NCBI GenBank assembly: GCA_965235115.1
Contig: OZ249436.1
Span: forward strand, 28,088,001 to 28,152,000
Direction of reading: 5' to 3'
DNA length: 64,000 nucleotides
Origin: Laetmonice hystrix
Lineage: Eukaryota
The translations under genes were made by a program, and so were the position numbers. Below the pieces are notes generated by a model. It saw only the letters and a list, made by a program, of their open reading frames with translations. It had not been told where the DNA came from and ran no database searches. How positions within the stretch are numbered: position 1 is the first letter of the stretch; each line of letters opens with the position of its first letter. This document shows positions 545-64,000 of the stretch, in pieces.

Positions 545-3500
545 ACTTACCTCATAGAAGACAGTGTAGTTAACTCTACCGCTGACTGACTGGTCATAGA
601 CGACAGTGTAGCTAACTCTACCAGTGACTGACTGGTCATAGACGACAGTGTAGTTAACTCTACCGCTGACTGACTGGTCATAGACGACAGTGTAGTTAAC
701 TCTACCACTGACTGACTGGTCATAGACGACAGTGTAGTTAACTCTACCACTGACTGACTGGTCATAGACGACAGTGTAGTTAACTCTACCACTGACTGAC
801 TGGTCATAGACGACAGTGTAGTTAACTCTACCACTGACTGACTGGTCATAGACGACAGTGTAGTTAACTCTACCACTGATTGACTGGTCATAGACGACAG
901 TGTAGTTTACTCTACCACTGACTGACTGGTCAGAGACGACAGTGTAGTTAACTCTACCAGTGACTGACTGGTCATAGACGACAGTGTAGTTAACTCTACC
1001 AACGACTGACCTGGTCATAGACGAACTCTACCAACGACTGACCTGGTCATAGACGACAGTGTAGTTAACTCTACCACTACAGTGACTGACTCTGGTCATA
1101 GACGACAGTGTAGTTAACTCTACCACTGACAGACTGGTCATAGACGACAGTGTAGTTAACTCTACCGCTGACTGACTGGTCATAGACGACAGTGTAGTTA
1201 ACTCTACCACTGACTGACTGGTCATAGACGACAGTGTAGTTAACTCTACCACTGACTGACTGGTCATAGACGACAGTGTAGTGAACTCTACCACTGACTG
1301 ACTGGTCATAGACGACAGTGTAGTTAACTCTACCACTGACTGACTGGTCATAGACGACAGTGTAGTGAACTCTACCACTGACTGACTGGTCATAGACGAC
1401 AGTGTAGTTAACGCTACCAGTGACTGACTGGTCATAGACGACAGTGTAGTTTACTCTACCACTGATTGACTGGTCATAGACGACAGTGTAGTTAACTCTA
1501 CCGCTGACTGACTGGTCATAGACAACAGTGTAGTTAACTCTACCGCTGACTGACTGGTCATAGACGACAGTGTAGTTAACTCTACCGCTGACTGACTGGT
1601 CATAGACAACAGTGTAGTTAACTCTACCGCTGACTGACTGGTCATAGACGACAGTGTAGTGAACTCTACCACTGACTGACTGGTCATAGACGACAGTGTA
1701 GTTAACTCTACCACTGACTGACTGGTCATAGACAACAGTGTAGTTAACTCTACCGCTGATTGACTGGTCATAGACGACAGTGTAGTTAACTCTACCAGTG
1801 ACTGACTGGTCATAGACGACAGTGTAGTTAACGCTACCAGTGACTGACTGGTCATAGACGACAGTGTAGTTAACTTTACCAGTGACTGACTGGTCATAGA
1901 CGACAGTGTAGTTAACTCTACCAACGAATGACCTGGTCATAGACGAACTCTACCAACGACTGACCTGGTCATAGACGACAGTGTAGTTAACTCTACCACT
2001 GACTGACTCTGGTCATAGACGACAGTGTAGTGAACTCTACCACTGACTGACTCTGGTCATAGACGACAGTGTAGTTAACTCTACCGCTGACTGACTGGTC
2101 ATAGACGACAGTGTAGTGAACTCTACCACTGACTGACTGGTCATAGACGACAGTGTAGTTAACTCTACCACTGACTGACTGGTCATAGACGACAGTGTAG
2201 TTAACTCTACCAGTGACTGACTGGTCATAGACGACAGTGTAGTTAACTCTACCACTGATTGACTGGTCATAGACGACAGTGTAGTTAACTCTACCACTGA
2301 TTGACTGGTCATAGACGACAGTGTAGTTAACTCTACCAGTGACTGACTGGTCATAGACGACAGTGTAGTTAACTCTACCAGTGACTGACTGGTCATAGAC
2401 GACAGTGTAGTTAACTCTACCACTACAGTGACTGACTCTGGTCATAGACGACAGTGTAGTTAACTCTACCACTGATTGACTGGTCATAGACGACAGTGTA
2501 GTTAACTCTACCAGTGACTGACTGGTCATAGACGACAGTGTAGTTAACTCTACCAGTGACTGACTGGTCATAGACGACAGTGTAGTTAACTCTACCAACG
2601 ACTAACCTGGTCATAGACGAACTCTACCAACGACTGACCTGGTCATAGACGACAGTGTAGTTAACTCTACCACTACAGTGACTGACTCTGGTCATAGACG
2701 ACAGTGTAGTGAACTCTACCACTGACTGACTGGTCATAGACGACAGTGTAGTTAACTCTACCACTGACTGACTGGTCATAGACGACAGTGTAGTGAACTC
2801 TACCAACGAATGACCTGGTCATAGACGAACTCTACCACTGACTGACTCTGGTCATAGACGACAGTGTAGTGAACTCTACCACTGACTGACTCTGGTCATA
2901 GACGACAGTGTAGTTAACTCTACCGCTGACTGACTGGTCATAGACGACAGTGTAGTGAACTCTACCACTGACTGACTGGTCATAGACGACAGTGTAGTTA
3001 ACTCTACCACTGACTGACTGGTCATAGACGACAGTGTAGTTAACTCTACCAGTGACTGACTCTGGTCATAGACGACAGTGTAGTTAACTCTACCACTGAC
3101 TGACTGGTCATAGACGACAGTGTAGTTAACTCTACCACTGACTGACTGGTCATAGACGACAGTGTAGTTAACTCTACCACTGACTGACTGGTCATAGACG
3201 ACAGTGTAGTTAACTCTACCACTGATTGACTGGTCATAGACGACAGTGTAGTTAACTCTACCACTGATTGACTGGTCATAGACGACAGTGTAGTTAACTC
3301 TACCAGTGACTGACTGGTCATAGACGACAGTGTAGTTAACTCTACCAGTGACTGACTGGTCATAGACGACAGTGTAGTTAACTCTACCACTACAGTGACT
3401 GACTCTGGTCATAGACGACAGTGTAGTTAACTCTACCACTGATTGACTGGTCATAGACGACAGTGTAGTTAACTCTACCAGTGACTGACTGGTCATAGAC

Positions 3501-5066
3501 GACAGTGTAGTTAACTCTACCAGTGACTGACTGGTCATAGACGATAGTGTAGTTAACTCTACCAACGACTAACCTGGTCATAGACGAACTCTACCAACGA
3601 CTGACCTGGTCATAGACGACAGTGTAGTTAACTCTACCACTACAGTGACTGACTCTGGTCATAGACGACAGTGTAGTGAACTCTACCACTGACTGATTGG
3701 TCATAGACGACAGTGTAGTTAACTCTACCACTGATTGACTGGTCATAGACGACAGTGTAGTTAACTCTACCAGTGACTGACTGGTCATAGACGACAGTGT
3801 AGTTAACTCTACCAGTGACTGACTGGTCATAGACGACAGTGTAGTTAACTCTACCAACGACTGACCTGGTCATAGATGAACTCTACCAACGACTGACCTG
3901 GTCATAGACGACAGTGTAGTTAACTCTACCACTACAGTGACTGACTCTGGTCATAGACGACAGTGTAGTGAACTCTACCACTGACTGACTGGTCATAGAC
4001 GACAGTGTAGTTAACTCTACCAGTGACTGACTGGTCATAGACGACAGTGTAGTTAACTCTACCAGTGACTGACTCTGGTCATAGACGACAGTGTAGTTAA
4101 CTCTACCACTGACAGACTGGTCATAGACGACAGTGTAGTTAACTCTACCGCTGACTGACTGGTCATAGACGACAGTGTAGTTAACTCTACCACTGACTGA
4201 CTGGTCATAGACGACAGTGTAGTTAACTCTACCACTGACTGACTGGTCATAGACGACAGTGTAGTGAACTCTACCACTGACTGACTGGTCATAGACGACA
4301 GTGTAGTTAACTCTACCACTGACTGACTGGTCATAGACGACAGTGTAGTTAACTCTACCACTGACTGACTGGTCATAGACGACAGTGTAGTTAACGCTAC
4401 CAGTGACTGACTGGTCATAGACGACAGTGTAGTTTACTCTACCACTGATTGACTGGTCATAGACGACAGTGTAGTTAACTTTACCACTGACTGACTGGTC
4501 ATAGACGACAGTGTAGTTTACTCTACCACTGATTGACTGGTCATAGACGACAGTGTAGTTAACGCTACCAGTGACTGACTGGTCATAGACGACAGTGTAG
4601 TTTACTCTACCGCTAACTGACTGGTCATAGACGACAGTGTAGTTAACTCTACCAACGAATGACCTGGTCATAGACGAACTCTACCAACGACTGACCTGGT
4701 CATAGACGACAGTGTAGTTAACTCTACCACTGACTGACTCTGGTCATAGACGACAGTGTAGTGAACTCTACCACTGACTGACTCTGGTCATAGACGACAG
4801 TGTAGTTAACTCTACCACTGACTGACTGGTCATAGACGACAGTGTAGTTAACTCTACCAGTGACTGACTGGTCATAGACGACAGTGTAGTTAACTTTACC
4901 AGTGACTGACTGGTCATAGACGACAGTGTAGTTAACTCTACCACTACAGTGACTGACTCTGGTCATAGACGACAGTGTAGTGAACTCTACCACTGACTGA
5001 CCTGGTCATAGACGACAGTGTAGTTAACTCTACCAATGACTGACCTGATCATAGACGACAGTGTAG
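545..5066. repeat. 42-bp minisatellite (about 107 units) overlapping exon end and donor
   Basis: Unit gactggtcatagacgacagtgtagttaactctaccactgact; shares the last 22 nt of exon 5045-5204. Confidence 0.97.
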
Positions 5067-5493: not shown

Positions 5494-6173
5494 GATAATG
5501 GTTGAAATGCAATAATCAAACTGCGTTGTCTCACTGACCGTATGGTGAAGGAGGATAATGGTTTAAATGTAATGATCAAACTGTGCGTTGTCTCACTGAC
5601 CGTATGGTGAAGGAGGATAATGGTTTAAATGTAATGATCAAACTGTGCGTTGTCTCACTGACCGTATGGTGAAGGAGGATAATGGTTGAAATGAAATGAT
5701 CAAACTGTGCGTTGTCTCACTGACCGTATGGTGAAGGAGGATAATGGTTTAAATGTAATGATCAAACTGCGTTGTCTCACTGACCGTATGGTGAAGGAGG
5801 ATAATGGTTTAAATGCAATGATCAAACTGTGCGTTGTCTCACTGACCGTATGGTGAAGGAGGATAATGGTTGAAATGAAATGATCAAACTGTGCGTTGCC
5901 TCACTGACCGTATGGTGAAGGAGGATAATGGTTGAAATGCAATGATCAAACTGTGCGTTGTCTCACTGACCGTATGGTGAAGGAGTATAATGGTTGAAAT
6001 GCAATGATCAAACTGTGCGTTGTCTCACTGACCGTATGGTGAAGGAGGATAATGGTTGAAATGTAATGATCAAACTGTGCGTTGTCTCACTGACCGTATG
6101 GTGAAGGAGGATAATGGTTGAAATGAAATGATCAAACTGTGCGTTGTCTCACTGACCGTATGGTGAAGGAGGA
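5494..6173. repeat. 62-bp tandem repeat (about 11 units) spanning a splice donor
   Basis: Each unit = last 17 exonic nt + donor gtcagt + intron start. Confidence 0.97.
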
Positions 6174-8084: not shown

Positions 8085-8479
8085 TGACAGACCTCCCACC
8101 CGGTGACTGACTGACCTCCCACCCGGTGACTGACTGACCTCCCACCCGGTGACTGACTGACCTCCCACCCGGTGACTGACTGACCTCCCACCCGGTGACT
8201 GACTGACCTCCCACCCGGTGACTGACTGACCTCCCACCCGGCGACTGACTGACCTCCCACCCGGTGACTGACTGACTGACCTCCCACCCGGTGACTGACT
8301 GACCTCCCACCCGGCGACTGACCTCCCACCCGGTGACTGACTGACCTCCCACCCGGTGACTGACCTCCCACCCGGTGACTGACTGGCTGACTGACTGACT
8401 GACTGTCTGACTGACTGTCTGTCTGACTGACTGACTGACTGACTGACTGACTGTCTGACTGACTGACTGACTGACTCAC
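8085..8479. repeat. (GACT)n microsatellite grading into a 23-bp minisatellite, starting at a donor
   Basis: gacctcccacccggtgactgact about 13 times plus (gact)n abutting ctcac (the donor). Confidence 0.95.
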
Positions 8480-17701: not shown

Positions 17702-17899
17702 CTGAATGGTGATAAGAGTAGTGTCCAGTTGGTCAGTGAATGAGACCACTCCCCTGTTCTGTACGAAGGCCTCCGGATCCCGCGGTACGATCTGCCACTC
17801 CACCTGGACCAGACCAAACGTCCCCATGGCCCTCCGGACTTCAATCTGAGCGCGACCGTCGTAACTTATACTCGGCTCACCCAGCATCACAAACCGCGA
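17702..17899 (-). CDS. ADGRV1: ADGRV1 exon (SRFVMLGEPS...LITIQ)
   Basis: tttcag| acceptor, cag|gtaaac donor; 66 codons. Confidence 0.92.
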
Positions 17900-18127
17900 C
17901 TGAAACAATTCAAATGGAATAGAAAAATGGAAAATGAAGAAAGGTTACCTTTGGGCATTCAGTGTAGGCATATCGTAGGAAAACTAGATGAACTTTGGTG
18001 CACGCTACCTTTTTGTTAGCTTTCATAGTTTTTTTTGCGAGATCAATTTGGAGGTAAAATACATAACATTTTTCAAATCAAGCGACTGACGGCTAGAATC
18101 TATTTTTAAGCACTCATCAGCACGGAG

Positions 18128-18771
18128 ATCACCCACCTCGGGGTTATGGAGATAATACCTACACTTTTACCAAAATCATCACCCACCTCGACAGCTATGG
18201 AGATAATACCTACACTTTTACCAAAATTATCACCCACCTTGGCAGCTATGGGGACAATGCCTACACTTATACCAAAATTATCACCCACCTCGGCAGTTAT
18301 GGGGACAATGCCTACACTTTTACCAAAATCATCACCCACCTCGGCAGCTATGGAGATAATACCTACACTTTTACCAAAATCATCACCCACCTCGGCAGCT
18401 ATGGAGATAATACCTACACTTTTACCAAAATCATTACCCACCTCGGCAGCTATGGAGATAATACCTACACTTTTACCAAAATCATCACCCACCTCGGCAG
18501 CTATGGAGATAATGCCTACACTTTTACCAAAATCATCACCCACCTCGGGAGCTATGGAGATAATGCCTACACTTTTACCAAAATCATCACCCACCTCGGG
18601 AGCTATGGAGATAATGCCTACACTTTTACCAAAATCATCACCCACCTCGGCAGCTATGGAGATAATACCTACACTTTTACCAAAATCATCACCCACCTCG
18701 GCAGCTATGGAGATAATACCTACACTTTTACCAAAATCATCACCCACCTCGGCAGCTATGGAAATGATGCC
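18128..18771. repeat. 51-bp tandem repeat (12 units) spanning a donor, in frame with the exon
   Basis: Sense unit gtgggtgatgattttggtaaaagtgtaggtattatctccatagctgccgag. Confidence 0.97.
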
Positions 18772-18930
18772 GCTAGCGCCAGGGTCGGCCAGGATGACGA
18801 CTGTAGCGTCACCAGCTGTGGGAGAGATGTCGCCTCTATCGGCCGACACCAGTGACAGGGTGTACCTTTCCTCTCCCTCCACCACTGTGTCAGGTAGTGT
18901 CCGTAGGGTGATCCTCTTGTACTGTTCAGC
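18748..18930 (-). CDS. ADGRV1: ADGRV1 exon (AEQYKRITL...GIISIAAE)
   Basis: atgcag| acceptor, gag|gtgggt proximal donor; 61 codons; further in-frame donors follow in the array. Confidence 0.88.
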
Positions 18931-19330
18931 CTGCATCAAACCAAGGACAGTGCTGTCAAACTCACATGTCAATACATACTCGGCTTGCTTGATTTCAATG
19001 CAAGTTTTAATTCTGCCTGAATTATAAAGCTGACAGTATCCTGACATTCACAGTACCAAGTGCTTTCAAACTTATTTTAATGTTTGAATCATAATAAAGG
19101 GCTGTATCTGTCAGCAGGGGACAGGGATCAGTACCCCTCCTACTTATCGGAAATGTTCTTATAAATCAACAGATATATTGCTTTAATAACAACTGTTCCT
19201 ATTATCTACCTCAGTCTGCCCCAGCGCTGTGGTCACTGGTTCATGTACTGCTAGCGATATTTTAACTCATGCCTTGTCTGTTTGATAATAAACATCCCCC
19301 TCACAATTAATGCAGAGAAATGATTCGTAC

Positions 19331-19495
19331 CGGGCCAAAGGTCAGAGTTCCCTGTAGTGGGAGTTGGAAGTCGTCGACAGCGGCGGCACTCAGTCTCCAC
19401 CTTACGTTGACGACGCCTTCCGTACCACGGCGCTGAACGTCAAACACTACACGTCCTCGGGGGTCATCCGACGTCACTGACTCGCGCACACTTTT
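19331..19495 (-). CDS. ADGRV1: ADGRV1 exon (KSVRES...GTLTFGP)
   Basis: ttgtag| acceptor, ccg|gtacga donor; 55 codons. Confidence 0.9.
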
Positions 19496-20464
19496 CTACA
19501 AGGATAATGCAAATTATGTGGTGTGTTTCAAATCAGCTTTCAGCTTGTTCGATGTGTTTTAAGTGAGAAAATAACCAATGGAGTTTAAAGGCAATACATG
19601 CAGGATAACACACAAGATCTGTGCTCTGAACCCAATGGGCATGATTAAATACTGGAACCACTGAGACATAATTTAATCTGAGACATTTTCACAATTATAA
19701 CTTTGACTCAACCTTATATCAGACAAGGAATCATTTTCAATAACATTGGTTTCAACTCTACCCTAGATTTGTAAGTTTTGAAAGGTTTTAGTAGATAATA
19801 TATTTTTTAAACCTATATTTCTAGAGATAAAAGCGCCAACAACAGGAGGGGAGGGACTAGAGGAGGGGAGGGAGTCTTTACCTATGAATCTAAGACTGGA
19901 AAAATGCATATCAAACATGAAAAGTTAAATTGCATTCCGATGCTCTGTGATACTTCACTGACATACAGAAAAGTCTTTGTGAAGGGTTTTGAAAGCTTGA
20001 ATTTTCAGATTACACTATGAAGAAAATAAAATTGGTGGAGGGATCTTGAGTGATGTCAAGTTGTGCCATAAAGCAAGTTATTCATAACTTTACATCACGT
20101 CACTTACCTCAAGTTCCCCCTTCAAGATCAGAACAAAGCAATGTATGTCTCAAATTTCCCATTCCATCATTTCAAGACACAACAAAATCACATCTTACGA
20201 CTCATTATCCACGCATTTTTGTTCAAATTCAGCCAGACTCGTTGGCTTTATCAAGTCAGGTAACAGTAGTATCATGTAGCCGGCGATGTTATTTTGAAAG
20301 AAATTATAATGATTGTACCATAAGTTTCCATTAATTTCAGGATGCCTGTTTGCATGTGTTCCTGGATTTTCCGTACCGAAGTGATGCACAATTAAAACTG
20401 AACGTCACGACTCTTTGAATAGACTATCATTCAATCTGGATCCACATTTTCTGTAGTCCTAACC

Positions 20465-21292
20465 TATATTCTACTTCTGAATGTCACTGCCTACCTGTGT
20501 TATATTCTACTTCTGAATGTCACTGCCTACCTGTGTTATATTTTACTTCTGGATGTCACTGCCTACCTGTGTTATATTCTACTTCTGAATGTCACTGCCT
20601 ACCTGTGTTATATTCTACATTTGAATGTCGCTGCCTACCTGTGTTATATTCTACTTCTGAATATCACTGCCTCCCTGTGTTATATTCTACTTCTGAATAT
20701 CACTGCCTCCCTGTGTTATATTCTACTTCTGAATATCACTGCCTCCCTGTGTTATATTCTACGTTTGAATGTCACTGCCTACCTGTGTTATATTCTACTT
20801 TTGAATGTCACTGCTTACTTGTGTTATAGTCTACTTCTGAATGTCACTGCCTACCTGTGTTATATTCTACTTCTGAATGTCACTGCCTACCTGTGTTATA
20901 TTCTACTTCTGAATGTCACTGCCTACCTGTGTTATATTCTACTTCTGAATGTCACTGCTTACTTGTGTTATAGTCTACTTCTGAATGTCACTGCTTACCT
21001 GTGTTATATTCTACTTCTGAATGTCACTGCCTACCTGTGTTATAGTCTACTTCTGAATGTCACTGCCTACCTGTGTTATATTCTACTTCTGAATGTCACT
21101 ACCTACCTGTGTTATAGTCCACTTCTGAATGTCACTGCCTACCTGTGTTATATTCTACTTCTGAATGTCACTGCCTACCTGTGTTATATTCTACTTCTGA
21201 ATGCCACTGCCTACCTGTGTTATATTCTACTTCTGAATGTCGCTGCCTACCTGTGTTATATTCTACTTCTGAATGTCACCGCCTACCTGTGT
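20465..21292. repeat. 36-bp tandem repeat (about 23 units) spanning a donor
   Basis: Sense unit gtaggcagtgacattcagaagtagaatataacacag. Confidence 0.97.
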
Positions 21293-25954: not shown

Positions 25955-26311
25955 AAAACTGAAATATTTCTTACTTTAGTTCATATTTCTGGATACTGGC
26001 ATCATAAATGTTTGCGATCACAAAGAAAACTGAAATATTTCTTACTTCAGGTCATAATTCTGGATACTGGCATCATAACTGTTTGCGATCACAAAGAAAA
26101 CTGAAATATTTCTTACTTCAGTTCATATTTCTGGACACTGGCATCACAACTGTTTGCGATCACAAAGAAAACTGAAATATTTCTTACTTCAGTTCATATT
26201 TCTGGATACTGGCATCACAACTGTTTGCGATCACTAAGAAAACTGAAATATTTCTTACTTCAGTTCATATTTCTGGATACCGGCATCATAACTGTTTGCG
26301 ATCACTAAGAA
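25955..26311. repeat. 71-bp tandem repeat (5 copies including the exonic one) spanning a donor
   Basis: About 53 exonic nt + gtaagaaatatttcagtt repeated. Confidence 0.96.
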
Positions 26312-26539
26312 CAACTCGCTGTCCACTCTGACGACGGCGGCAGCAGTAGCGCCCCTAGTGGCGAGTCGTTGAACCGGGGCTGAAGTAAACTTGACTTGGC
26401 TGAAGTCCCACTGGTAGACCTCGGAGGTTACTGATGTCTGTCCATTGTTATCTATGTAATTTGTCACCACTAGGTAGTGGTCATTGTTCTGTGTAAACTG
26501 GACAGCGTCAGTCGCTCCCTTTGTCGGTATGTCCTGTAC
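26259..26539 (-). CDS. ADGRV1: ADGRV1 exon, EAR/EPTP repeats
   Basis: caacag| acceptor, gaa|gtaaga donor; QDIPTKGA...YLVVTN...SEVYQWD. Confidence 0.92.
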
Positions 26540-28766: not shown

Positions 28767-28780
28767 CTGTGCAACAACAA

Positions 28781-30580
28781 CCGGCAACAATTAACACGGC
28801 AACAATTAACACGGCAACAATTAACACCGGTAATACTGCCAGTCAGAGCAGGCGGCCACCGGCAACACTGTCAGTCGGAGCGACCGGCCACCGGCAGCAC
28901 TGCCAGTCAGAGCGTCCGGCCACCGGCAGCACTGCCAGTCAGAGCAGGCGGCCACCGGCAACACTGTCAGTCGGAGCGACCGGCCACCGGCAGCACTGCC
29001 AGTCAGAGCAGGCGGCCACCGGCAACACTGTCAGTCGGAGCGACCGGCCACCGGCAGCACTGCCAGTCAGAGCAGGCGGCCACCGGCAACACTGTCAGTC
29101 GGAGCGACCGGCCACCGGCAGCACTGCCAATCAGAGCAGGCGGCCACCGGCAACACTGCCAGTCGGAGCGACCGGCCACCGGCAGCACTGCCAGTCAGAG
29201 CGTCCGGCCACCGGCAGCACTGCCAGTCAGAGTGTCCGGCCACTGGCAGCACTGCCAGTCAGAGCGACCAGCCACCGGCAGCACTGCCAGTCAGAGCGAC
29301 CAGCCACCGGCAGCACTGTCAGTCAGAGCGACCAGCCACCGGCAGCACTGCCAGTCAGAGTGTCCGGCCACTGGCAGCACTGCCAGTCAGAGCGATCAGC
29401 CACCGGCAGCACTGCCAGTCAGAGCGACCGGCCACCGGCAACACTGCCTGTCGGAGCAGGCGGCCACCGGCAACCCTGACCAGTCAGAGCGACCAGCCAC
29501 CGGCAGCACTGCCAGTCAGAGCGTCCGGCCACCGGCAGCACTGCCAGTCAGAGCGTCCGGCCACCGGCAGCACTGCCAGTCAGAGCAGGCGGCCACCCGC
29601 AACACTGTCAGTCGGAGCGACCGGCCACCGGCAGCACTGCCAGTCAGAGCAGGCGGCCGCCGGCAACGCTGTCAGTCTGAGCGACCGGCCACCGGCAACA
29701 CTGCCTGTCAGAGCAGGCGGCCACCGGCAACACTGTCAGTCAGAGCGCGCGGCCACCCGTAGCACTGCCCAGTCAGAGCGCGCGGCCACCGGTAACACTG
29801 CTGAATCAGAGCGCGCGGCCACCAGCAACACTGCCAAGTCAGAGTGCGCGGCCACAGGCAGCACTGCCAATCACAGCGCGCGGCTACTGGCAATACTGCC
29901 CAGTCAGAGCGCGCGGCCACACAGGCAGCACTGCCAGTCACAGTGCGCGGCCACCGGCAGCACTGCCGGTCAGAGCGCGCGGCTACTGGCAACACTGCCC
30001 AGTCAGAACGCGCGGCCACCGGCAGCACTGCCGGTCAGAGCGCGCGGCCACCGGCAACACTGCCCAGTCAGAGCGGGCGGCCACCGGCAACACTGCCCAG
30101 TCAGAGCGACCAGCCACCGGCAGCACTGCCTGTCAGAGCAGGCGGCCACCGGCAACACTGTCAGTCAGAGCGCGCGGCCACCGGTAGCACTGCCCAGTCA
30201 AAGCGCGCGGCCACCGGCAACACTCCCAGTCAGACCGACCGGCCACCGGCAACACTGCCAGTCAGGGCGCGTGCATGGCCACCGGCAGCACTGCCCAGCC
30301 AGAGCGCGCGGCCAAAGGCAACACTGCCAGTCAGAGCGCGCAGCCACAGGCAACACTGCCAGTCAGAGCGCGCAGCCACAGGCAACACTGCCAGTCAGAG
30401 CGTGCGGCCACCGGCAACACTGTCAGTCGGAGCACGCGGCCACAGGCAGCACTGCCAGTCAGAGCGCGCGGCCACATTCAACACTGCCAGTCAGAGCGTG
30501 CGGCCATAGGCAACACTGCCAGTCAGAGCGCGCGGCCAGCGGCAGCACTGTCAGTCAGAGCACGCGGTCACCGGCAACGC
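28781..30580. repeat. 15-bp x3 repeat plus 32-bp GC-rich minisatellite next to an acceptor; resumes at 31316-31398
   Basis: cggcaacaattaaca x3, then cagtcagagcgaccggccaccggcagcactgc variants. Confidence 0.96.
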
Positions 30581-33644: not shown

Positions 33645-34142
33645 TGTAACATGCAACACGTCACAGTTCTCAGGATGTGACACACAACAGGATATGACAC
33701 ACAACAGGATGTAACACGCAACACGTCACAGTTCTCAGGATGTGACACACAGCAGGATATGACACACAACAGGATGTAACACGCAACACGTCACAGTTCT
33801 CAGGATGTGACACACAACAGGATATGACACACAACAGGATGTAACACGCAACACGTCACAGTTCTCAGGATGTGTCACACAACAGGATGTGACACACAAC
33901 AGGTCACGGTTCTGAGGATGTGACACACAATAGGGCACGGTTCTCAGGATGTGACAGACAACAGGTCACGGTTCTCAGGATGTGACAGACAATAGGGCAC
34001 GATTCTCAAGATGTGACACACAACAGGTCACGGTTCTCAGGCTGTGACACACAATAGGGCACGGTTCTCAGGATGTGACACGCAACAGGTCACAGTTTTC
34101 AGGATGTGACACACAAGAGATCACAGTTCTCAGGATGTGACA
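33645..34142. repeat. About 31-bp minisatellite with a 66-bp higher-order unit abutting an acceptor
   Basis: cacagttctcaggatgtgacacacaacagg variants beginning at the AG of exon 33502-33643. Confidence 0.93.
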
Positions 34143-55444: not shown

Positions 55445-55569
55445 GTCCTGCCAACAAGGTCCTGCCAACAAGGTCCTGACAACAAGGTCCTGCCAACAAT
55501 GTCCTGACAACAAGGTCCTGCCAACAATGTCCTGCCAACAATGTCCTGCCAACAATGTCCTGCCAACAA
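55445..55569. repeat. 13-bp tandem repeat starting 9 nt after a donor
   Basis: gtcctgccaacaa(t/g)-type unit, about 9 copies. Confidence 0.93.
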
Positions 55570-55577
55570 GAACTTAC

Positions 55578-63261: not shown

Positions 63262-63560
63262 ATAGACATTAATGGTTTCGAGACGGTGCAGTGTGGACTC
63301 ACTGTCAAGAGTAATACCAATTCATGGACATTTACTTATTGTTACCGTTAGTTGTAATTTTCTACCATATCTATTCCCATGACAATGCAGTGTGGGCTCA
63401 TTGTCAAAAATGGGACATTAATGGTTTCGAGACGGTGCAGTGAGGGCTCACTGTCAAGAGTAATACCAATTCATGGACATTTACTTATTGTTACCGTTAG
63501 TTGTAATTTTCTACCATATCTATTCCCATGACAATGCAGTGTGGGCTCATTGTCAAGAAT
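63262..63560. repeat. 149-bp two-copy tandem duplication carrying dyad motifs
   Basis: gacattaatggtttcgagacggtgcagtg...cattgtcaa twice. Confidence 0.9.
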
Positions 63561-64000
63561 GGGATGGTGACACCCTTTCTGTTCAGAAATAACCTAATTG
63601 TCCTAAACCTTTAATTAATGTTGGACACGTGCAGTGTGGGCTCACTGTCCAACTTATATTTTTAATATTATAATAAACGGGTGTTGCCCAAATAACAACA
63701 TTATCTGTTTCCGAGTGTTGCCTGCATAAAGGCACGTTGTAACCGAAGGTTCAACGAATTTTATGCAGGAAAACACGAGAGGCCTACTGTCTGAATCAGT
63801 GCCGTCATGGCAACAACTTTCTGGGTCATGTGTTGAATAATTATGTCACGCCGAATCCCATCATGCATCATGCCGCAACCGGTTGACGACCGTGACGTTG
63901 TCCTTGAATCTTCCCACTTTCTTCAAGACACGCAGGGTAACGGTTTTCAGTGCCTCCACCGCCCCACCTGCCGCCTTAGGCCATCTGTTTGATGGGCTCT

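Follow-up and report, generated by a model that had tools for sequence, protein, structure and literature searches.

An in-frame minisatellite across an ADGRV1 splice donor of Laetmonice hystrix: probably a neutral 'mirage' array with a chance-level open frame

The ADGRV1 gene of Laetmonice hystrix contains a 51-bp minisatellite that crosses an exon-intron boundary and presents the splice donor eleven more times in the reading frame of the exon. We find that the in-frame, stop-free property of this array is no more than chance would give (about 1 in 5), and that the array is probably a neutral 'mirage' minisatellite with distal donors that are silent or used at trace level. Splice-site arrays of this kind are common in the genome of this species. 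The original prediction had seen in the extra donors a potential functional insert of variable length in the ADGRV1 ectodomain. Such an insert is formally possible in terms of frame and donor strength, but its use or selection is unsupported: the frame is at chance level, the variants among the repeat units look neutral and the length of the homologues is fixed.

Results

The window is the whole stretch of 64,000 nucleotides that was analysed (contig OZ249436.1, positions 28,088,001 to 28,152,000); coordinates refer to it unless stated otherwise, and the gene is on its minus strand. Collinearity identifies the host gene as a true ADGRV1 orthologue, as had been proposed: it runs parallel to P0005, an ADGRV1-like protein of Branchiostoma lanceolatum, over residues 88-6247 of 6248 in 54 collinear HSPs, the named homologues include the Mustelus asterias ADGRV1 (P0011) and Calx-beta matches are present in the window. 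Six homologues were tried, five of which aligned over most of their length and gave 102 exon cores; 99 of the 101 junctions were modelled as GT-AG introns, with junctions 33 and 34 left out. The median intron is 475 nt long, and there are two very long ones, of 21 kb (33644-55117) and 78 kb (G000:C1, window-scale 81044-158987). Repeats of 149 bp (two copies) and 19 bp (two copies) at 63265-63564 recur 831 nt away at window-scale 64096-64395, a pattern that suggests a larger tandem duplication across the right edge of the window. The features around the focal array are as follows.

19331-19495, minus strand: upstream ADGRV1 exon, 165 nt, phase 0/0 (homology gene model)
18748-18930, minus strand: ADGRV1 exon, 183 nt, 61 aa, ending in GASGIISIAAE (homology gene model)
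18742-18750, minus strand: authentic exon-proximal donor GAG/GTGGGT (cut before GT), first intron base 18747 (exact homologue collinearity)
18128-18771, minus strand: 51-bp minisatellite, 12.5 copies, unit of 27 nt of intron head and 24 nt of exon tail (TRF and sequence)
18187-18747, minus strand: units 1-11, in frame and stop-free, with a pseudo-donor at each end (18696 to 18186) (sequence)
18128-18186, minus strand: unit 12 (50 nt, frameshifted donor 18136) and a terminal 9-nt partial copy (sequence)
17900-18127, minus strand: unique remainder of the intron, 228 nt, acceptor TTTCAG at 17900 (gene model)
17702-17899, minus strand: downstream ADGRV1 exon, 198 nt, first residues SRFVMLGEP (homology gene model)

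The gene model agrees with the flanking exons that had been predicted (19495-19331 and 17899-17702). In the exon between them one Calx-beta repeat finishes and the next begins with its first strand; the Calx-beta match there has E 0.018, which is below the cut-off, and the exon ends in ADPGASGIISIAAE at the donor. When this proximal donor (18747) is joined to 17899 the product is exactly collinear with the homologues. The last 24 nt of the exon are the exon-derived portion of the repeat unit. TRF reports 12.5 copies with 95% matches over 18128-18762, and the resemblance to the exon continues as far as 18771, interrupted by two third-position differences. Taken by itself, the repeat goes well past anything that chance would produce.

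What had been read from the letters of the array stands in every detail that was compared. The unit is stop-free in the exon frame, its donors are in phase 0, one of them has the form GTGGGTA, and there are eleven extra in-frame donors with only the twelfth copy frameshifted. These donors follow each other in steps of 51 nt (18696, 18645, 18594, 18543, 18492, 18441, 18390, 18339, 18288, 18237 and 18186) and have the motif xAG/GTGGGT, cut before GT, with the GTGGGTA variant at 18441 and AAG before the cut at 18237. The copy at 18136 is out of frame (phase 2) because unit 12 has 50 nt. Reading through from the exon meets no stop down to 18108 and yields VGDDFGKSVGIISIAAE units, and the arithmetic holds by which the choice of donor k would lengthen the protein by 17k residues and keep the frame. 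The GT is kept in all 12 extra donor copies (median 9.7 bits) and units 1-11 have no indels. On a matrix trained on ADGRV1, the copies match the real donor in strength at 9.7 bits each, which is rank 83 of 99. Each of units 1-11 also contains a weak phase-0 GT (AGT/GTAGG, cut before GT) of 3.1-4.6 bits. The array reiterates a splice signal, and its unit runs across a boundary between exon and intron of the host gene, both of which characterise a mirage; it was also the single match in the 627-Mb genome in a search that skipped very common words, as expected of a repeat born locally.

The array is real, because in each of the three sequencing runs, which derive from one sample, the depth of words from the unit is several times that of the flank; in run X1 these words reach about 194 and 203 and the flank 40.5. 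The read check covered 18697-19520, a span that includes one unit, and all three runs pass through the upstream intron without a joint, so the reads behave as DNA. It is extremely improbable that the array is an assembly artefact or a collapsed repeat: short-read contigs do not give copy number and the three runs are one sample, but the excess of unit words recurs in each run, and the ten distinct variants among the units are clustered in neighbouring units. The reads also contain an apparent second haplotype, in a contig whose letters are partly visible, with a last unit of 39 nt and a flank 8 nt shorter. In X1 and X2, though not in X3, the depth of its contig is roughly half that of the flank, and the contig is too short to give copy number. 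The last unit of this haplotype seems to fall 12 nt short; a difference divisible by 3 has a chance of 1 in 3. In the exon, four allelic differences fall within 34 nt (18805, 18814, 18817 and 18838) and all four are synonymous; this exon combines high heterozygosity with purifying selection.

The focal array is one of a family of similar cases in the same gene. ADGRV1 holds 93 TRF arrays, of which eight straddle a donor, at 8 of the 99 modelled donors, and one straddles an acceptor. The periods of the donor arrays are 33, 132, 29, 71, 36, 51, 62 and 42, and five of these arrays are in the window. The other arrays that were characterised are listed here.

25955-26316, minus strand: 71 bp x5 across donor 26258, frameshifting (TRF and gene model)
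20465-21292, minus strand: 36 bp x23 across donor 21286, period in frame, stop before the first extra donor
5494-6173, minus strand: 62 bp x11 across donor 6156, frameshifting
552-5066, minus strand: about 42 bp x107 across donor 5044, first unit of 43 nt, stop after 4 codons
G000:C1 about 28,255,669-28,256,128 (window-scale 167669-168128), minus strand: second open donor array, 33 bp x14, phase 1, encoding IIRLTNISGNV
G000:C1 about 28,064,539-28,065,445 (window-scale -23461 to -22555), minus strand: acceptor array, 75 bp x12, preceding one of the exons close to the 3' end of ADGRV1

In six of the eight donor arrays, use of the first extra site would shift the frame or meet a stop; the two that are open are those of 51 bp and 33 bp. 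The sister arrays keep intact donors even though the use of these would break the protein. The open 33-bp array sits near the 5' end of ADGRV1, and the donor of its last copy is stronger than that of its first (6.8 against 4.9 bits). In the 75-bp acceptor array only the last acceptor is viable because of a stop in the exon frame. Other arrays contain no exon sequence and start 3-8 nt past a donor or finish 1-4 nt short of an acceptor (8085-8476, 55445-55570, 33645-34142 and 28771-28827). No array lies wholly within an ADGRV1 exon, where about 3.3 were expected, and therefore coding inserts are generally not tolerated in ADGRV1.

We compared the open frame of the focal array with what duplication would produce at random. 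When a random piece of 29-80 nt is duplicated over a real ADGRV1 donor, the result keeps the frame and contains no stop in 19.7% of draws (null P = 0.197); the exact geometry of 27 + 24 nt is open at 59 of the 99 modelled donors. Finding at least two open arrays among eight has a probability of 0.49.

The comparison was widened with an ab initio exon caller trained on ADGRV1. It found each of the nine ADGRV1 cases again and made a single false call; on the antisense strand none of its calls was a straddling one. Among 91 arrays in 659 kb of DNA poor in exons it identified three straddlers. Five dynein heavy-chain genes (190 kb, 51 arrays) supplied 17 splice-site arrays, five at donors and 12 at acceptors; 14 of their 17 exons have paralogue matches and three do not, and 11 of the 17 come from one gene. 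That gene (G000:C18:27,753,001-27,793,000) has 33 arrays in 40 kb, with 11 on splice sites (three donors and eight acceptors). Two dynein acceptor arrays are in frame and open, one of 39 bp in the same gene and one of 72 bp in another dynein stretch (L091-L092).

The resulting pool has 29 splice-site arrays, 14 at donors and 15 at acceptors (nine from ADGRV1, three from the 659 kb and 17 from dynein genes); a pair of arrays beginning a single base ahead of a donor were excluded, as was an ADGRV1-region call at 20.3 bits, judged false. The authentic site was taken to be the copy that adjoins the exon body, with homology as the backing in ADGRV1 and open coding frames elsewhere. In 10 of the 29 arrays the frame is kept by the nearest intact copy, one third being the expectation, and five arrays are in frame and stop-free against an expectation of 5.06; one of the five, a 28-bp array on C2, is a doubtful call, and without it the figure is 4 of 28. 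Overall, 356 of 433 pooled copies (82%) keep the GT or AG, and most of these match the real site in strength; in 24 of the 29 arrays the message would be broken if the neighbours were used, or there is no intact copy. Harmful copies whose GT or AG is mostly intact have therefore gone unpurged, which is consistent with their being ignored by splicing. Heavy use of neighbouring sites would, at most of these arrays, damage dynein and ADGRV1 messages, and it should enrich open arrays; this enrichment is absent. Nonsense-mediated decay (NMD) could hide a leak at frameshifting arrays, and therefore their survival is no proof of zero use. At the level of the population of 29 arrays, the lack of selection for frame and the 82% retention of GT or AG lend indirect support to a strict choice of the exon-proximal site, at donors and acceptors alike.

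Arrays fall on junctions more often than uniform placement predicts. With the two longest introns excluded, ADGRV1 has nine against 2.9 expected (P = 0.003; 0.01 without the focal array), and the dynein spans have 15 against 6.1 expected (P = 0.002), the latter being clumped in one gene under a null that allows placements within exons. The excess of about 2.5- to 3-fold is modest and provisional, given an imperfect null. The 8:1 ratio of donor to acceptor arrays in ADGRV1 (P = 0.039) was considered as evidence of selection against acceptor copies and was rejected, the ratio being 5:12 in dynein genes and 14:15 in the pool.

Variation among the units does not resemble that of coding sequence under constraint. 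Compared with their consensus, the eleven in-frame units show ten distinct variants, a small sample. A single one is synonymous, where a 27% synonymous share is expected without selection, and the nine non-synonymous variants, frequent as had been cautioned originally, include two changes to proline (S>P and A>P). The variation looks neutral. It had also been pointed out that the exon-derived part of the common unit differs from the exon at third positions only; there are two such differences, with a chance of 1 in 9 that both would be so placed, and the exon itself varies at silent sites, as its allelic differences show. A third-position bias as a general trait was rejected: in the other arrays, differences between exon and array fall on the three codon positions as 9/13/8, a count from which the two focal differences drop out after trimming.

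Homologues speak to the length of the protein at this junction. Among 29 homologue rows that cross it, several of them near-duplicates, 26 are of equal length and three differ by -2, -1 and +3; none has a 17-residue insert. A protein search with the exon alone gave one match, and with the exon followed by 11 units it matched P0001 alone, over the exon part, within its limits on length and candidates; no repeat-bearing predicted protein was present among the 8000 candidates scored, all of 136-434 aa, and a search for longer forms of P0001 found none. A selected and regulated ladder of up to 11 inserts that tunes the length of the ADGRV1 tether ectodomain is, in our assessment, highly improbable. 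Eleven consecutive intact in-frame units, a second open array in the same gene and the apparently in-frame 39-nt last unit of the other haplotype would accord with it, but open frames occur at the chance rate, non-synonymous variants are in excess among the units, length is fixed in the homologue rows and the last unit of the assembly haplotype is frameshifted. Scarcely credible is the proposal that the whole array is constitutively exonic, with 18186 as the real donor and 187 residues added. It is formally open and would leave an intron of 287 nt, but it needs an exon of 744 nt and an insert that is absent from all 29 homologue rows, and the same logic fails for the six sister arrays that are not open.

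Any insert would also have to be accommodated by the protein fold. An AlphaFold model of the homologue P0001, built with 16 sequences, has a mean pLDDT of 56.5, about 80 near the junction and poor outside residues 33-120. In this model the focal junction falls just after the strand at residues 46-51 (SGIISI), which may be interpreted as the strand that opens the following Calx-beta domain; because a PDB sequence search with P0001 gave no matches, this strand assignment is that of the AlphaFold model. Every unit ends in GIISIAAE. If donor k were used, the last copy of GIISIAAE could supply the first strand and the extra residues would be placed between two domains. The original caveat that an insert falls near the start of a Calx-beta fold is milder than it appeared if the strand can be rebuilt in this way. 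Such rebuilding would help the protein to bear leaky splicing, but it does not indicate that leak occurs.

Discussion

Our findings are best accounted for by a neutral array whose history would have been simple. A short tandem duplication may have taken the last 24 nt of the exon along with 27 nt from the head of the intron; the usual turnover of repeats could then have expanded it to 12.5 copies. Judging from the homologues, the sister arrays and the precedent of human F7, the spliceosome would pick the donor nearest to the exon body (18747), in which case the later copies would leave with the intron and the protein would stay normal. The open frame would be a one-in-five accident of unit length and base content. 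Some observations count against a neutral reading: all 12 extra GTs have been kept, the first 11 units are free of indels, and the last unit of the second haplotype seems to have shortened by a multiple of 3. The human 6-16 and CBS minisatellites, where two extra sites are used, also count against it, and the F7 rule comes from mammalian cells rather than from this animal.

Those human cases bear on leaky use without selection, in which the proximal donor dominates and donors 2-3 appear in at least 5% of transcripts to give isoforms longer by 17 or 34 residues, isoforms that would escape decay because they are in frame. We consider this unlikely. The copies equal the real donor at 9.7 bits, 6-16 and CBS are precedents, and the insert might be tolerated if, as the model would have it, its net effect were to lengthen the segment between two Calx-beta domains. 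On the other side, F7, lamin B2 and PDGF use the authentic site only in the accounts available to us, 24 of our 29 arrays would break the message or lack an intact copy, and open arrays are not enriched. It is very unlikely that both open ADGRV1 arrays, of 51 bp and 33 bp, are used at measurable rates to produce isoforms with 17k extra residues between Calx-beta domains and the fold kept. Were it so, the number of copies would determine an inherited span of tether lengths, and extracellular proteins would have mirage arrays as a source of new linker sequence; a ladder, if it exists, would mean that a repeat drives variation in the length of a very large adhesion receptor. The locus is in any event a handy test site for how strictly an invertebrate spliceosome keeps to the proximal donor among 13 near-equal candidates, because a message from a later in-frame donor would be stable here, while NMD hides a leak at most arrays of this type.

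Arrays that reiterate splice sites have been described before. Tandem repeats at exon-intron boundaries alter splicing in human paralogues (PMC2812944). Intron 7 (IVS7) of human F7 contains a polymorphic VNTR of 37 bp that overlaps the donor with its first unit and has the intronic hexamer GUGGGU; only the most upstream donor is used, and the fifth and sixth sites, which would keep the frame, are silent (Borensztajn et al. 2006, PMC1557585). The focal array is like F7 in its boundary-spanning first unit, in the identical donor copies that follow and in the hexamer. It differs in that its period is a multiple of 3, with 11 consecutive copies open rather than only the fifth and sixth, in that its unit has 24 exon nt rather than 4, and in that its host is an invertebrate. 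Splicing of F7 was assayed in mammalian cells, whereas the focal array is known from DNA. As cited in PMC1557585, the minisatellites of 6-16 (IFI6) intron 2 and CBS intron 13 use two extra donors, and the repeats of lamin B2 and PDGF use none. The former share reiterated donors with our array and are a precedent for a short ladder; unlike an 11-step case they use at most two extra sites, as do all the cases cited there, a point that also argues against a selected ladder, and the available text of that paper cites no 11-step ladder. Our literature search, which covered listed records and mainly open-access text, found no report of the focal locus or of an 11-step donor ladder.

The closest parallel is provided by the 'mirage' minisatellites of amphioxus, in Adh3, the globins BflGb6 and BflGb9, troponin C and PGBD5 (PMC3087553, PMC3902484). 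According to the available text of these papers, mirages are found at donors and acceptors, differ between haplotypes and are common across the genome, and they do not appear to disturb splicing, RT-PCR being normal. The array in L. hystrix differs in its host gene, ADGRV1, and in being seen at the level of genomic DNA, where normal splicing was demonstrated in amphioxus. Like the amphioxus mirages, it consists of locally born tandem copies of the gene's own exon-intron boundary, many such copies having an intact GT or AG, and it belongs to this described kind of mirage or splice-junction minisatellite.
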